From a virus (Duplodnaviria; Caudoviricetes), in IMG/VR virus record IMGVR_UViG_3300049458_000012, positions 11,425 through 75,424 of that record: a stretch of 64,000 nucleotides of DNA; one strand, written 5' to 3'. The notes under the pieces were generated by a model, which saw only the letters and a list, made by a program, of their open reading frames with translations, was not told the origin of the DNA and did no database searches. This document shows positions 3,294 to 62,434 of this stretch, in pieces. The position numbers and the translations under genes were made by a program. Positions within the stretch are counted from its first letter, which is position 1. Each line of letters begins with the position of its first letter.

Positions 3294-6104
3294 TTGCAAC
3301 TGAAACGTTTATTCCTTACGCTGGCTGCGCTGTTCACGCTGGCGTTGCCTGTTTTTGCGAATCCTCCCACGCAGTCGTATCACCTCGTGCTCACGCCCTC
3401 GGGGAAAGCGGATTCGAGATTCCCGGATGGTAACGATGCTGCATTGCTGCACTGGGCAACGATCCCCGATATAACGGTCAACAACGGATCGAGTGGCAGC
3501 GTTAACCTGCGTTCGTTTTTGACGGAGCCGGGATCTCCGAACGCGGCACTGACGGTGGGGTGCACGACCTCGGCGCTGCCTACGGGCGGGTTCAGCTTCG
3601 CGGACCCAACGCTGACCTACACCACCACGACGACAACCGCGGTGGTGTGCACCGCAACCGCGACTCGTACGGGCGGTTCACCAGTCAACTCGTTTCAATT
3701 CAACTTAGTTTCCAACTCGGCGGCTGCTGCAGACACCACAGCGCCAATGACTCCGTCGATTGTGTCGGCCATATGTTCGACAACGACGAGCTGCGCGGTA
3801 ACGATATTGCCGTTGAGTGATCCTTGCGTATCGGGGGCGTCCACCTCGGGGCTGAAGGACATTCGCCTCTACCGCAACGCGGCGCTGATCAATACGCAGA
3901 CCGTGAGTGTGGGCCTCAGCCCTTGCTTAGTTCCAACTTCGATCGGTAATGCGAGCAGTGTTTCGACCTCGCAGACCGGGGCCAATTGGCAGGCCACGCT
4001 GACCTCGGGAGACTTTTACAGCACGGCCAGCAATGGTGTGTTGCTGACGCCTGCGGTCTCGTTGTCGGGCGACTTGGACATTGTTACCTACACCTCCAGC
4101 TTCCCGACCACTAATTACTCCTTCGCCAAGATTGGCCCGATCTTCGCGAAGACGTTGGATTCACCGCAGCAGGCGATCTGGGGCGTGCAGTTCCCGGTCA
4201 CGGCGGGGTTGGGCAACGGCGTCAACCTCGAACAACGAGCCACGGCGGGTGGAGCCGCTACGCAGCAAGCGCGCGTGGCCAACGTTGGCCCGGGTTGCCT
4301 GTGGATGCACCGCACCGCGGCCACCAGTACGTTCCAGCTCTATAGCTCCCCGGATTGCAACTCGTGGGTGACGCGCCAGTCCTCCACGATGACGCTGGCA
4401 GACCCGGTCTTCCCAGGGGTGATGTGGGGGCAGACGAATGCAGCGGCGATGACCGTGACGCAGCGCGTCTCCATCAATAACCTTGCGCAGTACACGTTCA
4501 CCGATACTGGACGATCGCCCAGCACGACCTACACATACACGGTCGATGCACGCGACAACGCGAGCACGCCGAATGTGTCCACGATCTCGGCGGGAGTGGC
4601 CGCTACAACGCAGGGATCGGCGCCCGCGGTGGAGGCGTGGCCTCGATTGGGTGCGGTGGTAACGGGCGGCAGCCCACGTGACTATTGTTCAGACCCGTCT
4701 GTCCAGTGGCAATCGCGCATGTCGGTTGTTATTACGAATATATGGAACGGGTGGCAAGCCACTTGCACGGTTCGCACCTGGGGACAGAGTGTGCAGGCGG
4801 TGCACGATCAATCCCCGCTGAGCGTTCCAACGCGCATCTTCTCTTATTACAATGCCACCCAGGGTTCGAACTCCTCTAGTGGGGTGGATGCGAACTTGAA
4901 TGCGGCCATGAACGCCAACAACTGGTGGCTGCGCACGACATACCCGTCTGGATCAATAGTGCCGGGGTTCTGGTCTTCGAGTTTGAATGTCTTCAATTTG
5001 TATTATCCGGGCGGCAACAACGATGGTGCGGGCCGCACGATGTGGCAGTGGCTCGGGCGGTATTTCCTGGATGTGAACTATTGCGGCGGGTGCAGTGGGC
5101 TCGCTACGAGCGGCAACGCTGCGGCGCCAGCCCTCGCGGGCGTTTATGCGGATGACTTGGCCCACAGTCCACAAGTAAGTGGCGACTTCAATCGTGACGG
5201 CACGTCGGACAGTTCCGGGAATCAAACCTTTTGGCCCGGGTGGCGTGTGGGCGGAAGGCGCATCATGGATGAGATCACCACTATAACGCCCACGCTGAAG
5301 AAAGCGGCGAATGTGGGCGGCGCATACAGTGATTCGTCCATCGCGAATGGCGCTGAGTTCATCGGGTACTATGACGTCGTGTTCATGGAAAACCTGATGG
5401 GCCAGCAGTATTTGGAATATTACAACGGGTTCGATGGAGTCGTGGCCGGGGAAATCAATGAGTTCAAACTCCTGAACCCCAACGGCCTCAAGCAAGCGAT
5501 CTTCAACCATCACATCAGCGCCGCGAATGGCACAGACTACTCCGACGCCACCCCTTATCGGGCGGCATGGTATGGGATGACCACGGCTTGGGTCACGAAC
5601 GACGGTTATTACTCCGCGGACATTGCCGCGGGCCTCAACTTCACCCAATACAACATCAACGATCGCGTATGGTTCGATTACTACGCAATCAACCCCTCCA
5701 CGGGCGTGCCGGTGAGCATGGGGAGCGCAACCAACTCCTCGCTGAAGTGGCTCGGAGCCGCCACCGGGGCGATGCAAACGGTTGCGGGCACCGGGACGGA
5801 TGGCATTCGCATTCGCTTCTATGCGAACGGCTTTTGTGCGGTGAATCCGAAAGGCAACGGCACGCAGGGGCTGACGACAGCCGCGGTTGGAGGAGCGGGC
5901 CTGTATGAGCGCGTGCACGGTACGCAGCGACAAAGTTGGGATGACGGCACAACGTTCAACAGCACGCTGTCGATGCCCGCGCGAGACGGGATCTGCATGC
6001 GCAAGCTCTATATGTGGCTGATGCTGCTGTTGCTACCGAATCTGTGGCGCCGACGTCGGGCTGCGAATGACGATTTTTTCAATGCGCGAAGGAGGGCAGC
6101 ATGA
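3294..6104 (+). CDS. Large secreted/membrane-anchored protein: signal peptide, beta-sandwich and FN3 domains, putative glycoside-hydrolase TIM barrel, C-terminal TM plus SsrA-like tail
   Basis: TTG start after GAGGAG; KRLFLTLAALFTLALPVFA signal; FN3 motif SPSTTYTYTVDARD; YYSAD..WFDYY..LG..RFYANG..AVNP resembles GHL15-type hydrolases; ends MWLMLLLLPNLWRRRRAANDDFFNARRRAA. Confidence 0.7.
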   Translation: MQLKRLFLTLAALFTLALPVFANPPTQSYHLVLTPSGKADSRFPDGNDAALLHWATIPDITVNNGSSGSVNLRSFLTEPGSPNAALTVGCTTSALPTGGFSFADPTLTYTTTTTTAVVCTATATRTGGSPVNSFQFNLVSNSAAAADTTAPMTPSIVSAICSTTTSCAVTILPLSDPCVSGASTSGLKDIRLYRNAALINTQTVSVGLSPCLVPTSIGNASSVSTSQTGANWQATLTSGDFYSTASNGVLLTPAVSLSGDLDIVTYTSSFPTTNYSFAKIGPIFAKTLDSPQQAIWGVQFPVTAGLGNGVNLEQRATAGGAATQQARVANVGPGCLWMHRTAATSTFQLYSSPDCNSWVTRQSSTMTLADPVFPGVMWGQTNAAAMTVTQRVSINNLAQYTFTDTGRSPSTTYTYTVDARDNASTPNVSTISAGVAATTQGSAPAVEAWPRLGAVVTGGSPRDYCSDPSVQWQSRMSVVITNIWNGWQATCTVRTWGQSVQAVHDQSPLSVPTRIFSYYNATQGSNSSSGVDANLNAAMNANNWWLRTTYPSGSIVPGFWSSSLNVFNLYYPGGNNDGAGRTMWQWLGRYFLDVNYCGGCSGLATSGNAAAPALAGVYADDLAHSPQVSGDFNRDGTSDSSGNQTFWPGWRVGGRRIMDEITTITPTLKKAANVGGAYSDSSIANGAEFIGYYDVVFMENLMGQQYLEYYNGFDGVVAGEINEFKLLNPNGLKQAIFNHHISAANGTDYSDATPYRAAWYGMTTAWVTNDGYYSADIAAGLNFTQYNINDRVWFDYYAINPSTGVPVSMGSATNSSLKWLGAATGAMQTVAGTGTDGIRIRFYANGFCAVNPKGNGTQGLTTAAVGGAGLYERVHGTQRQSWDDGTTFNSTLSMPARDGICMRKLYMWLMLLLLPNLWRRRRAANDDFFNARRRAA

Positions 6105-48785: not shown

Positions 48786-49295
48786 TTAGAGCGTTTTCCA
48801 ACACTCGATTAGCCTCCGCACGTCATCCAACGCCCTGTGCGTTTGTGCCACGAAGGCGTCCGCCTTGATCACCTCCCGGCTCCAGTTCTCCAACTTCTTC
48901 CCGCCGCTGAGTGGCACCGTGTCGATCTGTTTCGAGGCGTAAGGGAAGCGGTGCTCCCAACCGCATCGACGCAGCTCGAACACGAGGCACCCTGCATCGA
49001 AGGGGTGATTGTGTGCCACGGAGGAGTTGTCCGGATCGGAGCGCCAGAAGTCGATAATCTCGGGCAACTTGGTGACGAACTTCGGCGCCCCCACTAAGTC
49101 CCCGTCCGTCAGTCCGGTGATCTTCGTGATGATGGCCGGGAGGGCCATGCCGGGGGAGAAGAGAGAAGTGAACGTGGCGCGTTCTTCACCATTCACCAGC
49201 AACACGGCAGCTAACTCAATGATGCGCGGCTGTTGTTTCGGATCTTCGATCCCGGGCAGCAGCAGGCCCGTTGTTTCTGTGTCCCAAAAAATCAT
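48786..49295 (-). CDS. DEDDh 3'-5' exonuclease (DnaQ/epsilon-like)
   Basis: FWDTETTG, VAHNHPFD, IDT, HRALDD. Confidence 0.93.
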   Translation of the reverse strand: MIFWDTETTGLLLPGIEDPKQQPRIIELAAVLLVNGEERATFTSLFSPGMALPAIITKITGLTDGDLVGAPKFVTKLPEIIDFWRSDPDNSSVAHNHPFDAGCLVFELRRCGWEHRFPYASKQIDTVPLSGGKKLENWSREVIKADAFVAQTHRALDDVRRLIECWKTL

Positions 49296-52654: not shown

Positions 52655-53016
52655 TGCATTTCTCCAACAGGGTAAATTATAGGGATATCATTTTTTTTGG
52701 CCTTCGTAACCATGTCCGTGGTGCCGCGGCCGCCTGGCAGGGCCACAACCAACTCGGGGTTTAGCAGCAGCATGGCGGAATTACGTTTTGGCCCAGCAGT
52801 ACGGTCAGTCACTCCACCAGGGAACCACAGTGCATCCACTTGCGCACAATGCACCAAATTAAGTCTACACCAACGTTTGGCCAATGCATCAGCCCCCTGG
52901 GCACCACCTTGGATAACGATGAGATTGTGTTTGTGCTGCTTTTTCAAATTGTCCAGTACAGGGAACAACCGTTCCCAATCATTGCATGCTCTTCCGCCGC
53001 AAACCAATACCCGCAT
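52651..53016 (-). CDS. YspA/DUF2493 SLOG-family protein
   Basis: RVLVCGGR, QGGAQGADALA, AGPKRN..ML, PGGRGT.DM. Confidence 0.85.
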   Translation of the reverse strand: MRVLVCGGRACNDWERLFPVLDNLKKQHKHNLIVIQGGAQGADALAKRWCRLNLVHCAQVDALWFPGGVTDRTAGPKRNSAMLLLNPELVVALPGGRGTTDMVTKAKKNDIPIIYPVGEMQ

Positions 53017-54545: not shown

Positions 54546-55193
54546 TCACGATGCGACCACTTTCACGTATCCCTTCGCCTTCAGCTTCTGCACGCACCCG
54601 AGGACTTGCGCCCGGGTCATCTTCTCGAACTTCTTCTCCAGCGTATCGAGAAGGATGCCGTTGTCGCCCGCCTTCTTCACGGCGGCAAACACCTGCGATC
54701 GGGGCGACTCCGCGTTGAAGCGGATATCGTCCTTGCGCCCCGCAGCGGTCAATTCGACCTTCATCGCCTCTCCATTCACGCGAGGGGCACGAGCGGTCTT
54801 CGCTTTCGGGGGATTCTTGGCCTTGCGGCCTTTCTTCGTCTTCACGGGTTGCGTCTCCTGTTCAGGGGTTATGGTTGGTTTCAAAAAATCGCCCAGCACT
54901 TCCGCTGGGCTGGGTTCGAGTGCCGGGGGCGGCTGATTGTTGAGCACCTCCATCACTCGCTTATGGGCAGTGGATCGATCGGCAAAACGGGTGACCGGTT
55001 TCACGCCCGGGGTTGCGTTGAAGATGCGCACGAGGTCCGGCCCACTCAGCTGACTCAGATCTCCATCAACGATGGAGTAGGCCGGGGTGTTGGCTTCGTG
55101 GCACTCTTCCGCTGCGGCGCCATTGTCAATGAAGCGGCCCAGCACCGCGTATGTCTTCATGCTGATCACAATTATCGACGACATTGCATTCAT
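54546..55193 (-). CDS. Hypothetical DNA-binding protein (Lys-rich linker, C-terminal winged-helix-like)
   Basis: GAAGGAG SD; R.QV...V....G......E......QKL..KGYV. Confidence 0.65.
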   Translation of the reverse strand: MNAMSSIIVISMKTYAVLGRFIDNGAAAEECHEANTPAYSIVDGDLSQLSGPDLVRIFNATPGVKPVTRFADRSTAHKRVMEVLNNQPPPALEPSPAEVLGDFLKPTITPEQETQPVKTKKGRKAKNPPKAKTARAPRVNGEAMKVELTAAGRKDDIRFNAESPRSQVFAAVKKAGDNGILLDTLEKKFEKMTRAQVLGCVQKLKAKGYVKVVAS

Positions 55194-55214: not shown

Positions 55215-55469
55215 TTAAAAACTACTCGGCGGCATTACGTCGGCAGCATAGTTCGCGTAATAGCGTGCCGTGTTGGACTCTGCCGCGCTCACCCGAGCGC
55301 GTGCGCGAGCGGCAGCAATTTGCTGCTCTCCGATGCGGTGCGCGCAACAGGACGCGGACCCTGTGCCGCCGTACATCTGCTTGCCTGTAGCCACCTTCTT
55401 CGCGTAGCTGGAGGCGCCGTTGGCCTTCGAAAGGCGCCCAACTTTGACGGTTTCGCGATTGCGTTTCAT
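55215..55469 (-). CDS. Basic hypothetical protein immediately after hammerhead HH10
   Basis: ATG 9 nt after the ribozyme 3' strand. Confidence 0.55.
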   Translation of the reverse strand: MKRNRETVKVGRLSKANGASSYAKKVATGKQMYGGTGSASCCAHRIGEQQIAAARARARVSAAESNTARYYANYAADVMPPSSF

Positions 55470-55478
55470 GACATCATT

Positions 55479-55534
55479 GGTCTCATCAGTGTGCGCACAT
55501 TACGCACAGACGGGCCTCGCGGCCCGTTTCGACC
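55479..55534 (-). ncRNA. Type II hammerhead ribozyme HH10
   Basis: Minus strand reads GGUC GAAA CGGGCC GCGA GGCCCG UC^ UGUGCG UAAUGUG CGCACA CUGAUGA GACC; predicted cut 55509/55508. Confidence 0.95.
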
Positions 55535-55735
55535 TCATCGGGGGACCTCTCGTTGCCTACGGATGAAAATTTCTTCTCTGTCGATGATCACCTCTCGGGC
55601 AGCGATGAAGTGCAGTTTCACTTGCTGCCCCTGGATGCTGGCCACTTGAATTCGAATCACCTCCCCTTTGCAGGTTATGAAAATTGACTCTCCAACCCTC
55701 CGACCGAGGACCAGTCCTTCACTTTGCGTTGCCAT
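55535..55735 (-). CDS. csrA: CsrA/RsmA-family carbon storage regulator homologue
   Basis: LVLGRRVGESIFI...I.V.SI.G.QVKL...A..EV.IDREEIF. Confidence 0.85.
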   Translation of the reverse strand: MATQSEGLVLGRRVGESIFITCKGEVIRIQVASIQGQQVKLHFIAAREVIIDREEIFIRRQREVPR

Positions 55736-55752
55736 CGCCACTACTCCTTTTG

Positions 55753-56352
55753 TCACCAGTAAAGTTTGCCGGGATTCAAGTCCGTGAGCATCCCCACTAC
55801 GTCGATTGGCACCAGGGCCTTCAACCGATCGTGTTGCGCCATGGCGGTGATTATCGCCTTCGCGGGCCACCCCTCGATAGGTGCGTTGGCCAGTGCATGC
55901 CAGCACTCGAACGTCATACCGCGAGGCGGGGTGATGTGCGCGAGAAAATCACGAGCCTCCTTATTCATGCCCACGTCCAAACGGATCACTTCCGCATTTC
56001 TCGACATTGATCGCGCATGCAGGTTCAACGCCGTCAAGTCGATCTTCCCGGCTCCTTTCGGGAAGTAATCCTCCGCATTACCGTGCCGATACACGACCAA
56101 CGCGGGCGGCGCCCCTTCGTATGACCAAAGAGTTGGATCGAGGATCTTTGCAGAGCGAAGGTACGGATTACCGATCACCACCCAGGAGTGCTGGCCCATG
56201 ATGTGACGGTGAAACCCGCGAGCCACCCGCGCCTTGTTGCTCAATAACCCGGTACGTACGAGCGCGAGAGAAGCGGCATGGCATTGCCGGGCCCACATCT
56301 CCAGGCCCCCGATTGCCTCAACAAGCGCGTTTTTCGAAAGCCGTGGCTTCAT
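55753..56352 (-). CDS. Hypothetical protein
   Basis: C..ASL..V, HSWV, ILDPTLWSY motifs (papain/transglutaminase-like triad possible). Confidence 0.55.
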   Translation of the reverse strand: MKPRLSKNALVEAIGGLEMWARQCHAASLALVRTGLLSNKARVARGFHRHIMGQHSWVVIGNPYLRSAKILDPTLWSYEGAPPALVVYRHGNAEDYFPKGAGKIDLTALNLHARSMSRNAEVIRLDVGMNKEARDFLAHITPPRGMTFECWHALANAPIEGWPAKAIITAMAQHDRLKALVPIDVVGMLTDLNPGKLYW

Positions 56353-56573
56353 GGCGTCCCCTCCGCGTCCGTGCGTTTCAAAAAGTTCGTGCGCGGGTCC
56401 TTCGATGGCGGCCAAGCGTGATCGCGCCTCGAATCGCTCGCGACCTCTTCCAACGCGACAATGGCTTTTTGCACATTGAGTGCCTTTTCGCCTTCGAGAC
56501 AATCGTTGTAAGCCGCTACGAGCTTCGCCAGATCCTCTCGCATGTCGGCCAGTTTGCCTACGACCGTTTTCAC
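56349..56573 (-). CDS. Hypothetical protein
   Basis: GTGA overlap. Confidence 0.45.
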   Translation of the reverse strand: MKTVVGKLADMREDLAKLVAAYNDCLEGEKALNVQKAIVALEEVASDSRRDHAWPPSKDPRTNFLKRTDAEGTP

Positions 56574-56824
56574 AGTGCCTCCACCCGCTGCGTGATGAAC
56601 TGCAGCCCGTTGCGCCAATCCGGCTGTGCAGGCATCGGGGTTTTATCAACCCTGACAACCGCACAGACCGCGGGACCGCGCGGCGTATCCGCCACCAGCA
56701 GCGCCCCTGGGACCACTTTCACCCCACGGCGAATCCCGTAGGTGTACACCTTATACAGGTTGTGGCCTTCGCCCCCGAGGAATCGCACCCCGATTGTGTT
56801 GTGCTTGAATTGAGTTCGTTTCAT
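56570..56824 (-). CDS. Hypothetical protein
   Basis: GGAGGAG SD; K.YTY..GALLV..TP.G..V..V motif. Confidence 0.6.
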   Translation of the reverse strand: MKRTQFKHNTIGVRFLGGEGHNLYKVYTYGIRRGVKVVPGALLVADTPRGPAVCAVVRVDKTPMPAQPDWRNGLQFITQRVEAL

Positions 56825-56849
56825 TACATCTCCTCCATTTCATTTCATG

Positions 56850-56906
56850 CCCAGACGGCGCCTCCTTCGCGCCGTTTCGCCGGAATCTCACCGGCTCATC
56901 AGTGGG
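56850..56906 (-). ncRNA. Type I hammerhead ribozyme HH9
   Basis: CCCA CUGAUGA GCCGG UGAGAUU CCGGC GAAA CGGCGC GAAGGAG GCGCCG UC^ UGGG; stem I extends GUG/CAU past an AA bulge; cut 56854/56853. Confidence 0.9.
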
Positions 56907-56907
56907 T

Positions 56908-57021
56908 TCACTTCCCGTCACCCTCCTTCGCGGACAATTCGCTGCGGCTCGGGGTTCCAACCCAAATGCCCGCAGCGAATGCCAGCACTACAGCGGCCAG
57001 GACGATGCTCCAATGGATCAC
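56908..57021 (-). CDS. 37-aa membrane peptide (not in ORF track)
   Basis: MIHWSIVLAAVVLAFAAGIWVGTPSRSELSAKEGDGK; GTGA overlap; stop abuts HH9. Confidence 0.55.
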   Translation of the reverse strand: MIHWSIVLAAVVLAFAAGIWVGTPSRSELSAKEGDGK

Positions 57022-58079
57022 GCGGCCTCCGCGATTGCCCGCCAATCGGTCTTCGGCAGCTCCAGGATGCGAGCCCCGTCCACCTCCAGCTGCGTCGCAC
57101 GCTCGTAGGAGGTCTCGTCCTGCGACTGCCGCGTGATGGCGTTCATCAGCCCGTAACGAGAAAGGTCCCCGCCTTCGATGAGGTGCCGCAGGATACCTCC
57201 CGCCGTTCCTTCGGTGTACCCGAAGTGCTTGGCCGTCACCTCCACGACGGAAGCGAGGTTCTTCGCCTCCAGACGCTGTTGCGTCGCGTCACGCATCTTC
57301 TCAACGAGCTTCTCCAGCACGTCGCGGGTGAGCACGCCGCGCACCGTGTCCTTCACCTTCATGAAGAACGCGGCATCGTCCAGCTGCTTGGTGCGATCGG
57401 AGTACAGCTCAAAAGCGTCCTCCGTCTCCGAGGCGCGCTTGCCGACGTGATAGCGGCGCTGGCCATAGTCCGGCGACACCATGCCGTTCTTGCAGATCAA
57501 CCGGTAGATGAGCGGCGCCACCTGCAACGCTCCAGAGCCAACCTCCGAATTCGACACCATGATGCCGATCTGCACCGGGTCACCCACCTTCACCTCCGTC
57601 TCGATCTTCGGCAACACGGCCTTCAAGTAGAAGCGCCGCTCCGTGAAGGAGGTGGATTCCACCCGGATCGAGTCATGGCTCATCAGCTCCGGCAGCACCG
57701 CCTGGGCCAGCTCGTAGTTATCGAGCGGGCGGTAACGATCGGAAAGAAAGGCCCTGGCCTTCCCGTCCAGCACCCGTACCATGCGGCGCGTGGGCTCTTC
57801 CTGGAAGAAGGTGTTGAGGGTGCGAGCATACAGGGCCGGGTGAGCGGTGCGGATGCGGTCCGCGTACTCCCGCGGTACCTTGTAGTGAGCCAGGGCCTGC
57901 TCGCGGAAGATCTCGCCTTCTTCGAGTGCGATCGGCTTCGCCCCCGGCAGCGCCAGCTCCAAACCCAGCTTGGCGTTCATGCTGAGCTGGGTGTCGATGT
58001 TGGCCACAAAGTCGCGCTTCGCAGCGTTGCGACGGTCGAGTTCAGTGGCCATCTGGGTCAGGGTCAAGTCGGTTTTCAT
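57018..58079 (-). CDS. DUF932/DUF945 family protein
   Basis: RAFLSDRYRPLDN, SNSEVGSGAL.V..LIYRL.C.NG, L.RYGL.NAIT. Confidence 0.85.
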   Translation of the reverse strand: MKTDLTLTQMATELDRRNAAKRDFVANIDTQLSMNAKLGLELALPGAKPIALEEGEIFREQALAHYKVPREYADRIRTAHPALYARTLNTFFQEEPTRRMVRVLDGKARAFLSDRYRPLDNYELAQAVLPELMSHDSIRVESTSFTERRFYLKAVLPKIETEVKVGDPVQIGIMVSNSEVGSGALQVAPLIYRLICKNGMVSPDYGQRRYHVGKRASETEDAFELYSDRTKQLDDAAFFMKVKDTVRGVLTRDVLEKLVEKMRDATQQRLEAKNLASVVEVTAKHFGYTEGTAGGILRHLIEGGDLSRYGLMNAITRQSQDETSYERATQLEVDGARILELPKTDWRAIAEAA

Positions 58080-58105
58080 TGCATTGTCTCCAAAAAGTTA
58101 GGTTT

Positions 58106-58159
58106 GGTCTCGTCAGTGCGGACCTTATCCGCAGACGGGCCTCGCGACCCGTTTCGACC
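58106..58159 (-). ncRNA. Type II hammerhead ribozyme HH8
   Basis: GGUC GAAA CGGGUC GCGA GGCCCG UC^ UGCGGA UAAGG UCCGCA CUGACGA GACC; cut 58134/58133. Confidence 0.95.
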
Positions 58160-58160
58160 T

Positions 58161-58613
58161 TTAAAAGAATCGGCTCCTGCGCAGACTTCCTTGTGCCCGC
58201 CGCGTGCTGAGTGTATCCCGGGACTCGTGTGCGCGTTCGAGTCCTTGATTGTAGAGATCGAGGAAGGGCTGCAGATCGGTCATGCGTGATTCACGCAGAT
58301 AAACCTCGATCTTCCGGCGCACATGCGGGCCGAAGCCCACCCGGACAAGCTGCCCGTCCAGCGTGACCCCGTATGAACGATCGGAGACGTTGCGCCGTGT
58401 GCCGCTCTTAATCAGCAGTGTTGTCACGATCCATCCAAAGCGCTCCGTGTTATAGAGCGTGAGACTTCTCGGCTGCGGATAAGCCAGCAACTTGTTCGCC
58501 TCGCGCCACTTATCGTAGGCCGCAACGCTCTTGTGAGGGCAGCGGTGCTCCAGGTCTGCTGCCGTAATGCCCGCGGGCAACGCGATCTCGGGAAGTTTGG
58601 TTTTGGCTTTCAT
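58161..58613 (-). CDS. Hypothetical protein
   Basis: Flanked by HH7 and HH8; the track's longer start runs through the ribozyme. Confidence 0.65.
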   Translation of the reverse strand: MKAKTKLPEIALPAGITAADLEHRCPHKSVAAYDKWREANKLLAYPQPRSLTLYNTERFGWIVTTLLIKSGTRRNVSDRSYGVTLDGQLVRVGFGPHVRRKIEVYLRESRMTDLQPFLDLYNQGLERAHESRDTLSTRRAQGSLRRSRFF

Positions 58614-58620
58614 TTCATTC

Positions 58621-58675
58621 GGTCTCATCAGTGACGGCATTTACCGCCAGACGGATCTCGCGACCCGTTTCGACC
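58621..58675 (-). ncRNA. Type II hammerhead ribozyme HH7
   Basis: GGUC GAAA CGGGUC GCGA GAUCCG UC^ UGGCGG UAAAUG CCGUCA CUGAUGA GACC; cut 58650/58649. Confidence 0.95.
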
Positions 58676-58789
58676 TCATCTCAAGTAATGGACACACGTC
58701 GCCAGCTCCGCGCAGAAGATCCCCAGCAGGATAAAAGCCAACACGGTTCTGGTCCATCGGACAGTGCGATGCTTCATTGTCATTGTCAT
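58676..58789 (-). CDS. 37-aa membrane peptide
   Basis: MTMTMKHRTVRWTRTVLAFILLGIFCAELATCVHYLR; AGGAG SD; stop abuts HH7. Confidence 0.55.
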   Translation of the reverse strand: MTMTMKHRTVRWTRTVLAFILLGIFCAELATCVHYLR

Positions 58790-59151
58790 TCTCCTGATCT
58801 CATAGAAGGCAACTCTTCCATCACCTCGGTGATCGATTTCACGGCCCCGTACCGTTGATAAGCGGCCCACGCATCCGCGGCCACCCCGGTGTCTCCCGCT
58901 CGCGCCATCCAATACTTGCGCGCACTCGGGGACAACGCATTCCACCAATCCATGCCGAGATCCTCCACGGCGAGCGTCATGCCCACGAAATGAGGTGAAG
59001 CACGCAGGCGACGGGCTTCACGGTTTGCCGCTTCCGGGGTGGTGAATTCAAAAGCCCCGCTGCTGAGCGCCGTGTACCCCTCGTCACCGTCCTTTCGGAA
59101 ATACCAGTACGCGCGGCGCTGGGCGTCAACACATTTTATCTTGATGCTCAT
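58786..59151 (-). CDS. Hypothetical protein
   Basis: ATG 6 nt after HH6; GMDWWNALS...R.YW...G...A.AW motif. Confidence 0.65.
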   Translation of the reverse strand: MSIKIKCVDAQRRAYWYFRKDGDEGYTALSSGAFEFTTPEAANREARRLRASPHFVGMTLAVEDLGMDWWNALSPSARKYWMARAGDTGVAADAWAAYQRYGAVKSITEVMEELPSMRSGE

Positions 59152-59157
59152 TGCATT

Positions 59158-59213
59158 GGTCTCATCAGTGCTGGCACTTCACCAGCAGACGGCGCGTCAG
59201 CGCCGTTTCGACC
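59158..59213 (-). ncRNA. Type II hammerhead ribozyme HH6
   Basis: GGUC GAAA CGGCGC UGAC GCGCCG UC^ UGCUGG UGAAGUG CCAGCA CUGAUGA GACC; cut 59188/59187. Confidence 0.95.
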
Positions 59214-59376
59214 TCGGTGTCATCGCGGCTCGCAGCGCCGCATCGCGTTCGGCCTTACGCGCGTGAAAAGCCGCGCGTCGGGCTTCATGCTCAATGCGCG
59301 TGGTTTCGGCGCTCTCGGGCGGCTGAGCCGTGGCCCGCTCGAAGAGTTTGAACAGATCGTCAGCGAGGGTTTTCAT
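59197..59376 (-). CDS. 59-aa protein whose stop lies in HH6 loop III (not in ORF track)
   Basis: MKTLADDLFKLFERATAQ...AAMTPRSKRR; ATGA overlap upstream. Confidence 0.5.
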   Translation of the reverse strand: MKTLADDLFKLFERATAQPPESAETTRIEHEARRAAFHARKAERDAALRAAMTPRSKRR

Positions 59377-59639
59377 GACCAGCGGTCCACCATTTCAGCC
59401 ATCTGCGCATCAATGTCAGCTTCCGCGAACACATCGACCTCGGCTTGTGTGCGGGTGCGTGGTGGGACAAACACGGCCTCTCCAACCGTCATCATTCGAT
59501 CCAGCTCCGCGCGCCGAGCAGCATTGAAGCGCTGAATGGCCACCAGCTCCGCGGCCCTGGCCACCTCAACCATCCGCTCCAATCGCTCGCGCTCCTGGCG
59601 AACAACGGTGACATCCTCTCTCAACTCGTTAAGTGTCAT
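59373..59639 (-). CDS. Coiled-coil hypothetical protein
   Basis: ATG 7 nt after HH5. Confidence 0.6.
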   Translation of the reverse strand: MTLNELREDVTVVRQERERLERMVEVARAAELVAIQRFNAARRAELDRMMTVGEAVFVPPRTRTQAEVDVFAEADIDAQMAEMVDRWS

Positions 59640-59646
59640 GGCATTC

Positions 59647-59702
59647 GGTCTCGTCAGTGACGGCACTTTACCGCCAGACGGATCTCGCGACCCGTTTCGA
59701 CC
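59647..59702 (-). ncRNA. Type II hammerhead ribozyme HH5
   Basis: GGUC GAAA CGGGUC GCGA GAUCCG UC^ UGGCGG UAAAGUG CCGUCA CUGACGA GACC; cut 59677/59676. Confidence 0.95.
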
Positions 59703-59705
59703 TTT

Positions 59706-60221
59706 TCAAGGCGGGCATTCGAGCAGCGTGCCCGTTTTCCCGTTCTCATCCGGACAATCCACGCGCAGCCCCCAATTCATGCGCGCAATGATCAGCACGG
59801 CAACGATCGAGAACACGGCATAAGCAACCGTCTTCCACTTGGCAATTCGAGCTTGCACCGCGTTCGCCTCCGCATCGGCCCGAGCGGCCAACCTTCGAGC
59901 GCGACTCTTCAAGGCCCCTGCCCGCATGCAATCGAACTCATCGTATTCCTTTTTCTGGATCGCATAATCCAGGGCCTGGGACGTAAGCCCGAAGCGCTCA
60001 GCAACGCGCGTGAGCAGGGCCTCGTAAACTTCCTGCTCCCGGGTGGAGTTGGCCGGGCCGCTCCACTCCCCACCATCAAACTGCGCATCTGCCTCCGCGC
60101 CAATGGCGAAAGATTCCCCAATCGGCGCCCACAGCCGCACCATGGCCTTTACCGCGAGCTTCGTGCGGTCTGCCGGCCAGTTGATGGTGTTGTGGCAAAC
60201 AATCCGTTTGGTAACTATCAT
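59706..60221 (-). CDS. Hypothetical protein with C-terminal TM helix
   Basis: GAGGAG SD after HH4; WKTVAYAVFSIVAVLIIA. Confidence 0.6.
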   Translation of the reverse strand: MIVTKRIVCHNTINWPADRTKLAVKAMVRLWAPIGESFAIGAEADAQFDGGEWSGPANSTREQEVYEALLTRVAERFGLTSQALDYAIQKKEYDEFDCMRAGALKSRARRLAARADAEANAVQARIAKWKTVAYAVFSIVAVLIIARMNWGLRVDCPDENGKTGTLLECPP

Positions 60222-60234
60222 TTCATTTCTCCTC

Positions 60235-60289
60235 GGTCTCATCAGTGCCCGCACTTACGGGCAGACGGTGCCGGAGCACCGTTTCGACC
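60235..60289 (-). ncRNA. Type II hammerhead ribozyme HH4
   Basis: GGUC GAAA CGGUGC UCCG GCACCG UC^ UGCCCG UAAGUG CGGGCA CUGAUGA GACC; cut 60264/60263. Confidence 0.95.
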
Positions 60290-60296
60290 TCTTCCC

Positions 60297-60713
60297 TCAA
60301 CCGCGCGCCACTGGTAAGTTTACATCCAGGAGCTTCTCGCGTGCCAACTTGATCTTCGCCTCCAACCGGTCCAGCTCTTCGTACATTCCCTGTACGCCCC
60401 AGGCCGGGTTGCAGCGTGGATCGGCCTGGATCACGCTGATGGCTACGGATGCCGCACGTAACGCGGTTCGCTTGCGCACTTCTTCGCGCGCCACGTCGAT
60501 ATCCGTGCGCAGTGTTTCGCGCCCATGGGGACTGGAGACTTTGTCCACCGCGCGCCCCTCTTTATCGAAGCGCTTGGTGATCTTCCCGCCGTCCCCGAGA
60601 TCGCGAACCGCCACGACTTGCCCCGTGGGCGTGATCTTCGTCACTTTGTATCCGAAGACGATGCCGTGATAGCCATCGACAGCAACCTCTTGATCAACTT
60701 TCACTTCGTTCAT
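60297..60713 (-). CDS. Hypothetical protein (SH3/KOW-like N-terminus)
   Basis: VKVDQEV...KVTKITPTGQV...RFDKEG. Confidence 0.65.
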   Translation of the reverse strand: MNEVKVDQEVAVDGYHGIVFGYKVTKITPTGQVVAVRDLGDGGKITKRFDKEGRAVDKVSSPHGRETLRTDIDVAREEVRKRTALRAASVAISVIQADPRCNPAWGVQGMYEELDRLEAKIKLAREKLLDVNLPVARG

Positions 60714-60737
60714 TGCATTGCCCCTTGAAGTTGGTTT

Positions 60738-60792
60738 GGTCTCGTCAGCACCCGCTTCACGAGTGGACGGCGCTCAGCGCGCCGTTTCGACC
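60738..60792 (-). ncRNA. Type II hammerhead ribozyme HH3
   Basis: GGUC GAAA CGGCGC GCUGA GCGCCG UC^ CACUCG UGAAG CGGGUG CUGACGA GACC; cut 60766/60765. Confidence 0.95.
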
Positions 60793-61014
60793 TTATGCGC
60801 GTAGTTTCCGGATGGTCTCTTCGAATTCGCGGATGTGTTCGCGAGGAACAACGATCGCAAACTTCGCGACCTGCCCCATGTCGTTGACCATTGCGGTGGA
60901 GGGGATATCTTGCGCAGCTATGCGGTTGGCCTTGCCCTTTTCAATCAGCAAGTCTGCGGCCACTTCTTCTATCTGCCCAAAGATGGAATAAACCTCAGTT
61001 CCAGAACGTTTCAT
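60793..61014 (-). CDS. 73-aa hypothetical protein
   Basis: ATG 6 nt after HH2; stop TAA abuts HH3. Confidence 0.6.
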   Translation of the reverse strand: MKRSGTEVYSIFGQIEEVAADLLIEKGKANRIAAQDIPSTAMVNDMGQVAKFAIVVPREHIREFEETIRKLRA

Positions 61015-61020
61015 GGCGTT

Positions 61021-61075
61021 GGTCTCATCAGTGACGGCATTTACCGCCAGACGGGCCTCGCGACCCGTTTCGACC
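61021..61075 (-). ncRNA. Type II hammerhead ribozyme HH2
   Basis: GGUC GAAA CGGGUC GCGA GGCCCG UC^ UGGCGG UAAAUG CCGUCA CUGAUGA GACC; cut 61050/61049. Confidence 0.95.
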
Positions 61076-61079
61076 TTTG

Positions 61080-61277
61080 TCAGTGTGCTGCTGGAATCCA
61101 AAGAATCCAATGATCGGTGCAAGGTGCCCAAACGCGCCCCAGAGGATCGGTGACATACATGTCCGGGGTAGAAGTGCCGGAAGTCTCTTGCGTTTTCGCT
61201 TGGCTCATCCGGGCAGCCAGCTCACTGTCCACGCGATAAGCGCCGATCCCTTCGAGTTGGACAATAACGTTGCTCAT
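61080..61277 (-). CDS. 65-aa hypothetical protein
   Basis: GGAGA SD; stop 4 nt before HH2. Confidence 0.6.
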   Translation of the reverse strand: MSNVIVQLEGIGAYRVDSELAARMSQAKTQETSGTSTPDMYVTDPLGRVWAPCTDHWILWIPAAH

Positions 61278-61294: not shown

Positions 61295-61317
61295 TTGGTT
61301 TGGTCTCATTCGCCTTA
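61295..61317 (-). pseudogene. Internally deleted hammerhead relic
   Basis: UAAGGCGAA-UGAGACC-AAACCAAC keeps the 5' (AAGG(U)CGAA) and 3' (UGAGACC AAACCAAC) ends of the repeat but lacks stems I/III and the cleavage site. Confidence 0.65.
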
Positions 61318-62154: not shown

Positions 62155-62183
62155 TTCATTTTCTCCGGGGAATAAGTTGGTTT

Positions 62184-62274
62184 GACTCGTCAGTGCTGCG
62201 GGAACCGCCCAGCCAGCAGACGCACCCCGAAGGCTTGCGGCCTTTATGCGTAATCGCGCGGGGTGCGTTTCGTC
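62184..62274 (-). ncRNA. Expanded type II hammerhead ribozyme HH1
   Basis: GAC GAAA CGCACCCC [31 nt incl. AAGGC-CGCAA-GCCUU hairpin] GGGGUGCG UC^ UGCUG [GCU GGG CGGUU CCC G] CAGCA CUGACGA GUC; cut 62219/62218. Confidence 0.85.
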
Positions 62275-62434
62275 TTGAGTCCAACTTGCTCTCGGCAACG
62301 GGCATCCTTTTTCCCGTATTGCCCGGAATCGTCCGGTTGGGTGCGAACCGTTTCGGCGTCATCCCTCGGTTCTCCGGTGCGTTAGTCACCTTGCGGACCT
62401 TCGGGGCGCCCGGCACGGTCTGCCGGGGAAGAAG

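Follow-up and report, generated by a model that had tools for sequence, protein, structure and literature searches.

The 64-kb stretch of DNA analysed here (the window) comprises the last 64 kb of the 75,424-base IMG/VR virus record IMGVR_UViG_3300049458_000012, a phage record with a completeness rating of 100%, and carries on its minus strand, from 62.3 to 55.4 kb, an operon of small genes in which hammerhead ribozymes fill most of the gaps between genes. The array is composed of eight canonical type II hammerheads with a GGUC/GACC stem II, one expanded type II hammerhead, one type I hammerhead and one remnant, i.e. ten intact hammerheads plus the remnant within 6.8 kb, on one strand and among 17 genes. 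The array genes g1-g18 (62154 down to 54546) were assigned manually from open reading frames (ORFs), Shine-Dalgarno sequences (SDs) and stop-start overlaps; gene calling of the whole window based on GC3 (GC content at third codon positions) was too noisy and was not used for them. The individual features and their distances in nucleotides (nt) to the neighbouring stop and start codons are as follows.

62183..62275, minus strand: expanded type II hammerhead in the untranslated leader of g1, with stem II GAC/GUC and a long stem III insert; 31.3 bits with RF02276; no upstream ORF; tail AAACCAACUU...GGAGA, then AUG 62154.
61296..61310, minus strand: hammerhead 3' remnant, AUGAGACC plus AAACCAAC tail, after the g1 stop (61315-61317); SD GGAGAG and AUG 61277 downstream.
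61021..61075, minus strand: type II hammerhead; g2 stop UGA (61080-61082) 4 nt upstream; g3 AUG 61014 6 nt downstream, no SD.
60738..60792, minus strand: type II hammerhead; g3 stop UAA (60793-60795) abutting (0 nt); g4 AUG 60713 24 nt downstream, SD AAGGGG.
60235..60289, minus strand: type II hammerhead, the only copy above the Rfam gathering score; g4 stop UGA (60297-60299) 7 nt upstream; g5 AUG 60221 13 nt downstream, SD GAGGAG.
59647..59702, minus strand: type II hammerhead; g5 stop UGA (59706-59708) 3 nt upstream; g6 AUG 59639 7 nt downstream, no SD.
59158..59213, minus strand: type II hammerhead entered by the g7 ORF over 17 nt, with the g7 stop UGA (59197-59199) in loop III, ahead of the cleavage site 59188/59187; g8 AUG 59151 6 nt downstream, no SD.
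58621..58675, minus strand: type II hammerhead; g9 stop UGA (58676-58678) abutting (0 nt); g10 AUG 58613 7 nt downstream, no SD.
58106..58159, minus strand: type II hammerhead; g10 stop UAA (58161-58163) 1 nt upstream; g11 (DUF932) AUG 58079 26 nt downstream, SD GGAGA.
56850..56906, minus strand: type I hammerhead with the layout CCCA / CUGAUGAG / CCGG hairpin / CGAAAC / stem III hairpin / GUC / UGGG; stop UGA (56908-56910) 1 nt upstream of stem I; g13 AUG 56824 25 nt downstream, SD GGAGGAG.
55479..55534, minus strand: type II hammerhead; g16 stop UGA (55535-55537) abutting (0 nt); g17 AUG 55469 9 nt downstream, no SD.

At window junctions without a ribozyme, neighbouring genes either overlap by AUGA or GUGA or are 4-28 nt apart. 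The array genes are mostly small and mostly unannotated: Pfam and PHROG searches gave a single family match among the flanking genes, the DUF932 protein g11 (58079-57018), and no function for the others. The operon may be an early or an accessory one.

The presence of hammerheads on the coding strand, as the original prediction had proposed, is borne out by core, fold and covariation. On the minus strand there are eight occurrences of the pattern CGAAAC..CTGAYGA, compared to 0.15 expected, and the eight canonical copies, each of 54-56 nt, have stems I and III closed, stem II open and a GUC cleavage triplet. The core elements CUGA(U/C)GA, CGAAAC and GUC, which fit the hammerhead core of CUGANGA, GAAA and an NUH cleavage triplet, are present in all nine type II copies, the expanded copy showing the same open-stem II topology by inspection. 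RNAalifold applied to the eight canonical copies returns the type II hammerhead fold, with compensatory changes in eight of 18 pairs and no disrupted pair. Searching with a covariance model derived from these eight copies gave 151 matches, which are distributed over 100 other viral loci and mostly score 40-72 bits, and in the alignment of 140 distinct relatives fitted to that model 99% of the cells are paired, with a covariation score of 0.715 compared to 0.14 for shuffled alignments and at most 0.10 when the pairing partners were slid.

With the Rfam family RF02276, for which the gathering score is 37 bits, a single window copy exceeds this with 38.2 bits, another six range from 23.3 to 33.2 bits and the remaining two do not appear among the matches. 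At the gathering score the same family gave no match on 13 related loci (L001-L012 and L121), and allowing E-values up to 1 gave two sub-threshold matches, while the type II hammerheads of these loci score 40-70 bits with the window-built model. The GGUC/GACC type II hammerheads are thus a well-defined subfamily that is systematically under-called by the Rfam threshold. The type I element at 56850-56906 was assigned by core and topology upon inspection and has an orthologue in locus L121; its stem I is only 4 bp long and its best match within the Rfam clan reaches 23.2 bits compared to a cut-off of 48.5.

Helix lengths for a pseudoknot joining loop I to the 3' tail were no better than in a swapped-tail control, the window copies allowing 2-5 bp, and without such an excess the start region downstream is not tied up by this pseudoknot. 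The subfamily probably uses another contact between stem I and stem II instead. Among its members in the IMG/VR loci L001-L120, the innermost pair of stem I is U-G in 112/140, a purine follows stem II in 140/150 and the base preceding stem II is A in 149/150, whereas a G at position -2, present in 4/8 window copies, is found in 5/150. These conserved flanking bases and the U-G pair may constitute the tertiary contact between stem I and stem II replacing the pseudoknot.

All distances between stop codon and ribozyme given in the original prediction proved to be correct, i.e. 0 nt for the stops at 55535, 58676 and 60793, 1 nt at 58161 and 56908, 3 nt at 59706, 4 nt at 61080 and 7 nt at 60297, as did the stop inside loop III at 59197, which lies upstream of the cut at 59188/59187. 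The original prediction read this arrangement as a possible translational switch; we find the same abutment throughout the family. Scanning IMG/VR for GGTCGAAAC..CTGAYGAGACC returned 120 loci, in which type II hammerheads were called by core and stem rules with the flanks left unused, resulting in a sample of 169 non-redundant copies on 111 contigs, and the stop used was that of the longest ORF upstream, with a minimum of 50 codons. Outside the window, 105/152 type II copies have this stop at -1 to +4 nt from stem II (74/106 if one copy per contig is counted), compared to 15/510 (3%) for random anchors on the same contigs. The abutting stops of the relatives comprise all three stop codons and slide over six positions, and they are therefore working stops rather than a fixed motif. 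As the A preceding stem II is invariant, the junctions UAG|GUC, UAA|GGUC and UGA|GGUC place the stop on conserved ribozyme positions, as is the case in three window junctions.

The rule extends to type I hammerheads of phages, for which a second scan placed 17/30 stops within -1 to +4 nt of stem I. In 7/30 type I copies (loci L129-L247, e.g. L201, L214 and L241) the long upstream ORF continues across the 5' strand of stem I, its stop codon being the UGA within the catalytic CUGAUGA. Among the relatives found, L121 is the closest; it encodes a DUF932 protein 71% identical to that of the window phage and carries four hammerheads, three of type II and one of type I, with stops at 0 and 2 nt for two of the type II copies, at 1 nt for the type I copy and none for the leading expanded copy. 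Stop abutment is therefore a family-wide rule of phage hammerheads and not special to the window phage. Moreover, no ORF precedes the leader ribozyme at 62275, so that function does not depend on a stop upstream. The main text of the study describing type II hammerheads (PMC3088659) contains 0 mentions of stop codons, and we did not find the rule stated in a full-text literature search combining hammerhead, stop codon and phage or prophage.

A further peculiarity concerns the start codons. The AUGs at 61014, 59639, 59151, 58613 and 55469 follow the GACC strand by 6, 7, 6, 7 and 9 nt, respectively, as originally predicted, and they lack an SD: the duplex with the anti-SD is predicted at -2.7 to -3.0 kcal/mol, compared to a random median of -3.0 kcal/mol. 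SD-bearing starts of the same operon mostly reach -6.4 to -9.3 kcal/mol with the same generic anti-SD, and 14 well-defined genes elsewhere in the window range from -3.0 to -12.2 kcal/mol. The start of g10 at 58613 agrees with the N-termini of 14 homologues and with an independent gene call. Aligned to their SD-bearing paralogues, the five tight copies represent the same module minus the AACCAACU...SD segment.

Outside the window, an SD and a start lie no more than 40 nt behind 129/159 ribozymes, the median distance between ribozyme and start being 19 nt, and a credible SD-less ATG at most 10 nt behind the ribozyme was found in about 2/159 cases (L044 and L115) compared to 5/9 in the window. 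In L121 every ribozyme is followed by an SD, and its g3 homologue has an SD and an AUGA overlap but no ribozyme; homologues of g10 elsewhere sit in ribozyme-free arrays. This presence or absence at homologous genes means that ribozymes come and go and are dispensable for particular genes. Judged from these comparisons, the SD-less fusion of start and ribozyme appears to be peculiar to the window phage, a rare local variant.

The original prediction assigned GAGACC as the ribosome-binding region, freed upon cleavage. Neither part is supported by our analyses: pairing of this segment with the generic anti-SD equals the random median, and only GACC is paired within the ribozyme, which does not sequester an SD. 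We calculated start access as the mean unpaired probability from -15 to +12 around the AUG in the precursor and in the 3' cleavage product, a secondary-structure measure that leaves occlusion by the tertiary core outside the model, and obtained changes from 0.45 to 0.42, 0.41 to 0.48, 0.58 to 0.67, 0.39 to 0.66 and 0.54 to 0.57 at the five tight junctions. Access is thus altered by at most 0.09 at four of them and by 0.27 at one.

Several observations were made around the start codons. The sequence ATGNNATGA occurs 21 times in the window compared to 7.8 expected, including 13 minus-strand copies between 49.3 and 61.3 kb, at 49295, 51301, 52654, 52982, 55469, 56824, 58079, 58613, 59151, 59639, 60221, 60713 and 61277. 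Twelve of these 13 coincide with a called AUG, with or without an upstream ribozyme, the exception being the copy at 52982, for which no called ORF matches. The sequence can be read as a mini-ORF of two codons, AUG-NNA-UGA, the stop of which overlaps the true AUG; an SD, where present, precedes the first AUG by 2-3 nt and the second by 7-8 nt. We also considered the AUG within the core CUGAUGA as a start codon, which is in frame with the gene at 58613 and opens an ORF of 5-6 codons ending on the UGA of the real AUGA at 61014, 59151 and 55469. With four cases and a chance of two in three for each, this is not significant and the idea was dropped. The ORFs g9 (58676-58789, minus strand) and g12 (56908-57021, minus strand), the stops of which abut the ribozymes at 58675 and 56906, are very small and hydrophobic (about 35-37 amino acids), and their reality rests on start signals only, i.e. 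AGGAGA plus an AUGA overlap for g9, for which the start is either 58789 or 58783 (minus strand), and a GUGA overlap for g12.

Taken together, we favour, with confidence slightly better than even, a reading in which the ribozymes serve as punctuation of the mRNA in a compact operon of small phage genes. From what is observed, namely sequence, fold, covariation and the stop distances with their generality, we infer cleavage in vivo, protection of the message ends and the mode of initiation at the SD-less starts. A single long minus-strand transcript, extending from about 62.5 kb to 55.2 kb or further, would be split by self-cleavage at as many as ten hammerheads into mono- and oligocistronic products, i.e. 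g1-g2, g3, g4, g5, g6-g7, g8-g9, g10, g11-g12, g13-g16 and g17 onward. We detected no sigma-70-like promoter on the minus strand within the array, and the promoter and terminator scan gave nothing above shuffled sequences.

Each product would begin with a 5'-OH base-paired within the stem I hairpin and end with the stem III hairpin a few nt past the stop codon, carrying a 2',3'-cyclic phosphate. According to the predicted fold, base pairing of the 3' product begins with its very first nucleotide (stem I, -6.9 to -11.2 kcal/mol), in agreement with the 5'-OH hairpin suggested by the original prediction, and the 5' product ends one base past the stem III hairpin (-9.4 to -14.1 kcal/mol). In this way the cistrons would be uncoupled from their neighbours, and both ends of each message would be capped against RNase E-type and 3'-exonucleolytic decay. 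The leader ribozyme would trim the untranslated leader; as this ribozyme has no ORF in front of it, leader trimming would itself be a use. The five tight AUGs would represent copies without the usual A/C-rich spacer and SD, and these five cistrons probably initiate on the single-stranded CUGAUGAGACC-RA left once the 4-bp stem II has fallen apart.

Within the punctuation reading, the stop touches the ribozyme because no spacer is left free, the ribozyme cannot overlap the coding sequence by much and the stop has to precede the cut, as a stop downstream of it would result in a non-stop mRNA. In every window junction, including the loop III case, the stop indeed lies upstream of the cut. The invariant A preceding stem II, in part together with the first G of stem II, would thereby often become part of UAA, UGA or UAG. 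For non-ribozyme junctions between same-strand genes on the same contigs, the SD of the next gene begins at or before the stop in 47%, a noisy value derived from crude ORF calls. Compaction combined with a stop kept upstream of the cut is enough to explain the abutment, and since the rule fits plain compaction, it reveals no mechanism by itself.

Some points weigh against this reading. Compaction does not explain why the two sides of the ribozyme differ: the median distance from stop to ribozyme is 2 nt (interquartile range 0-4), that of the A/C-rich spacer from ribozyme to SD is 8 nt (interquartile range 4-15), and the 5' gap is smaller than the 3' gap in 78/107 pairs (Wilcoxon p = 6e-6). The A/C-rich spacer may have a use of its own, and the asymmetry is only a hint. 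Furthermore, punctuation and compaction provide no positive mechanism for the five SD-less starts in a phage otherwise mostly using GGAG-type SDs. The Rfam gathering score is reached by just one of the nine type II copies, and the sequencing runs listed for the phage comprise one of DNA (a soil metagenome, probably the source) and none of RNA.

An alternative, which we consider unlikely, is the translation-coupled switch proposed in the original prediction. Here, the ribosome terminating on the abutting stop would hold the 5' strand of stem II and the preceding A and delay folding; after release of the ribosome the ribozyme would cut, and its 3' half would become the landing site for the SD-less cistron, so that cleavage would both switch on translation and cap the message. 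A ribosome covers about 10-12 nt downstream of its A site, and with the stop in the A site it would cover GGUCGAAA. The stops, located 0-7 nt from stem II in the window and -1 to +4 nt in most relatives, fall inside this footprint, and the invariant A at -1 (149/150) doubles as the final base of the stop codon at three junctions of the window. The switch is furthermore consistent with the tighter packing of the 5' side and with the five starts lacking an SD of their own, at which a 30S subunit positioned on the AUG, 6-9 nt behind GACC, would extend into the folded catalytic core. A precedent exists in eukaryotic RNA viruses, in which self-cleavage alone can enable translation initiation (PMC13725137). 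However, the pairing energy of GAG(AC) with the anti-SD is -2.7 kcal/mol, i.e. at the random median, and modelled access of the start region is hardly altered by cleavage. The abutment is also seen where a normal spacer and SD follow (129/159, including L121) and thus needs no SD-less partner, and the first ribozyme works without any upstream ORF. Finally, termination is brief relative to typical hammerhead rates, so that the expected delay is small.

It is rather improbable that the arrangement reflects in essence a spreading module, in which the stop context, the ribozyme, the leader and AUGNNAUGA were pasted together into junctions by recombination, stop and start travelling along. Such a history is suggested by near-identical copies (HH61075 and HH58675 differ at 2/55 positions), by the tails AAACCAAC and the AUGNNAUGA start context common to the copies, by the decayed copy at 61296-61310 and by the variable presence of ribozymes at homologous genes of related phages. 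The type I copy and its L121 orthologue, moreover, share UGAACCCA-CUGAUGA behind unrelated upstream ORFs, and UAACA precedes GGUC in about a quarter of the relatives. Against joint travel of stop and ribozyme, the stop occupies six different positions, can be any of the three stop codons and is in frame with unrelated long ORFs, indicating local adjustment, and [AGT]TGA stop-start overlaps are not enriched at abutting stops, as judged by eye from the IMG/VR list. A spreading module would also account for the origin of the arrangement and not for its function, and is compatible with the ribozymes acting as punctuation.

Traces of start signals are found directly in front of some ribozymes. L121 contains at 3872-3927, after its g1 homologue, an intact ribozyme orthologous to the window remnant at 61296-61310, which is preceded by GGAGAAGAUGGCAUGA, an SD plus the AUGNNAUGA start context serving as the end of the upstream gene. 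In the window, the end of g16 (55535-55555, minus strand), directly before the ribozyme at 55534, reads GAGAGGUCCCCCGAUGA, which resembles an SD, a spacer and an AUGA stop-start overlap, such as would be seen if the ribozyme had entered a junction that was once coupled; an SD with AUGA is also located directly before the second ribozyme of L121.

We give even less credence to a shunt-like coupling prior to cleavage, according to which the SD-less cistrons would be translated mainly by ribosomes ending on the abutting stop and passing the compact ribozyme to reach the adjacent AUG, cleavage acting as a timer that ends this passage and thereby turns off the downstream gene. The other SD-less starts of the operon are located at AUGA or GUGA overlaps, i.e. 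they are coupling-dependent, the five tight junctions retain the same AUGA start context, and in the type II topology a single 4-bp helix has the stop at one end and the next AUG at the other. Yet by the footprint argument a ribosome on the stop would melt stem II, abolishing this juxtaposition at termination, and 60-65 nt with two stable hairpins lie between stop and start. Least credible of all are closed-loop or circular messages, in which the ends of a cassette would re-form a hammerhead around their own ORF via the identical stem II and be held together or ligated, which would bring the stop and the start of the cassette next to each other: GGUC/GACC is invariant in the eight copies, the stem II strands have both the stop and the start only a few nt away and hammerheads catalyse the reverse reaction, but a 4-bp helix closing a loop of 200-1100 nt is marginal, GGUC/GACC is the commonest stem II of this subfamily across unrelated phages (117-137/140 distinct sequences at each of the four pairs), so that its invariance in the window calls for no special reason, and re-forming a ribozyme is not possible for cassettes that border on the type I copy, the remnant or the GAC/GUC copy.

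Downstream of the array, a terminator-like hairpin at 54891-54910 (minus strand) with 8 bp followed by a U run lies inside the 215-amino-acid ORF g18 (55193-54546), suggesting either that this ORF is shorter than called or that the hairpin is fortuitous.

Known systems resemble parts of this arrangement. Type II hammerheads were described by Perreault et al. 2011 (PMC3088659) as clustering around single genes or short blocks in prophages, with polycistronic transcripts of about 2 kb being cleaved in vitro and with a pseudoknot between loop I and the tail in the majority of type II ribozymes but not in all. The prophage and phage clusters of that study share with the window the presence of several type I and type II copies on one strand flanking single small genes or short unconserved blocks, and the role proposed for them is cutting a long transcript into gene-length mRNAs. 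The window differs by its high density, by the five copies fused to SD-less starts and by a type II subfamily without an excess of the pseudoknot.

Synthetic ribozyme insulators such as RiboJ were reportedly introduced by Lou et al. in 2012. In these, a hammerhead just upstream of the start removes 5' sequence and leaves a message led by a 5'-OH hairpin, and the first ribozyme of the array (62275-62183) is positioned alike. The use of such insulator parts is documented, e.g. in PMC7536230. RiboJ is a type III ribozyme derived from sTRSV with an added hairpin exposing a normal ribosome-binding site (RBS), whereas the window copies are natural, repeated between cistrons and of type II, five of them being without an SD.

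In engineered hammerhead riboswitches, reportedly developed by Ogawa and Maeda in 2008 and by Wieland and Hartig in 2008, the RBS is hidden in a ribozyme stem and freed by cleavage. This corresponds to the logic of the original prediction, in which cleavage turns on the downstream gene; in contrast to these constructs with an SD paired in an extended stem, here only GACC and not an SD is paired and access hardly changes. Recently (2026), ribozyme self-cleavage was reported to enable translation in linear RNA viruses of fungi and plants (PMC13725137), in which a hammerhead lies ahead of an ORF and has to cleave for this ORF to be translated. That system is eukaryotic and cap-independent and operates in 5' untranslated regions with no link to an upstream stop, while the ribozymes of the window are intercistronic elements of a bacterial DNA phage.

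As a summary, the stop codon lies within about four bases of the ribozyme, or overlaps it, in roughly 70% of phage type II hammerheads. According to this rule, each ribosome terminating there has to disrupt the ribozyme. A dense and clean array as described here bears on the role of phage ribozymes, the function of prokaryotic hammerheads still being called an open question in a 2017 review (PMC6155905). It is possible, albeit improbable, that at the five SD-less cistrons, having lost an RBS of their own, the ribozyme is a true translational gate, cleavage either licensing initiation on the freed 3' half after the terminating ribosome and the ribozyme fold have competed for common nucleotides, or ending the crossing of ribosomes to the adjacent AUG. 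If this were true, it would provide a defined function for phage hammerheads in coupling or uncoupling the translation of neighbouring genes, and the five SD-less fusions represent natural constructs for a direct look at the interplay of translation and ribozyme.

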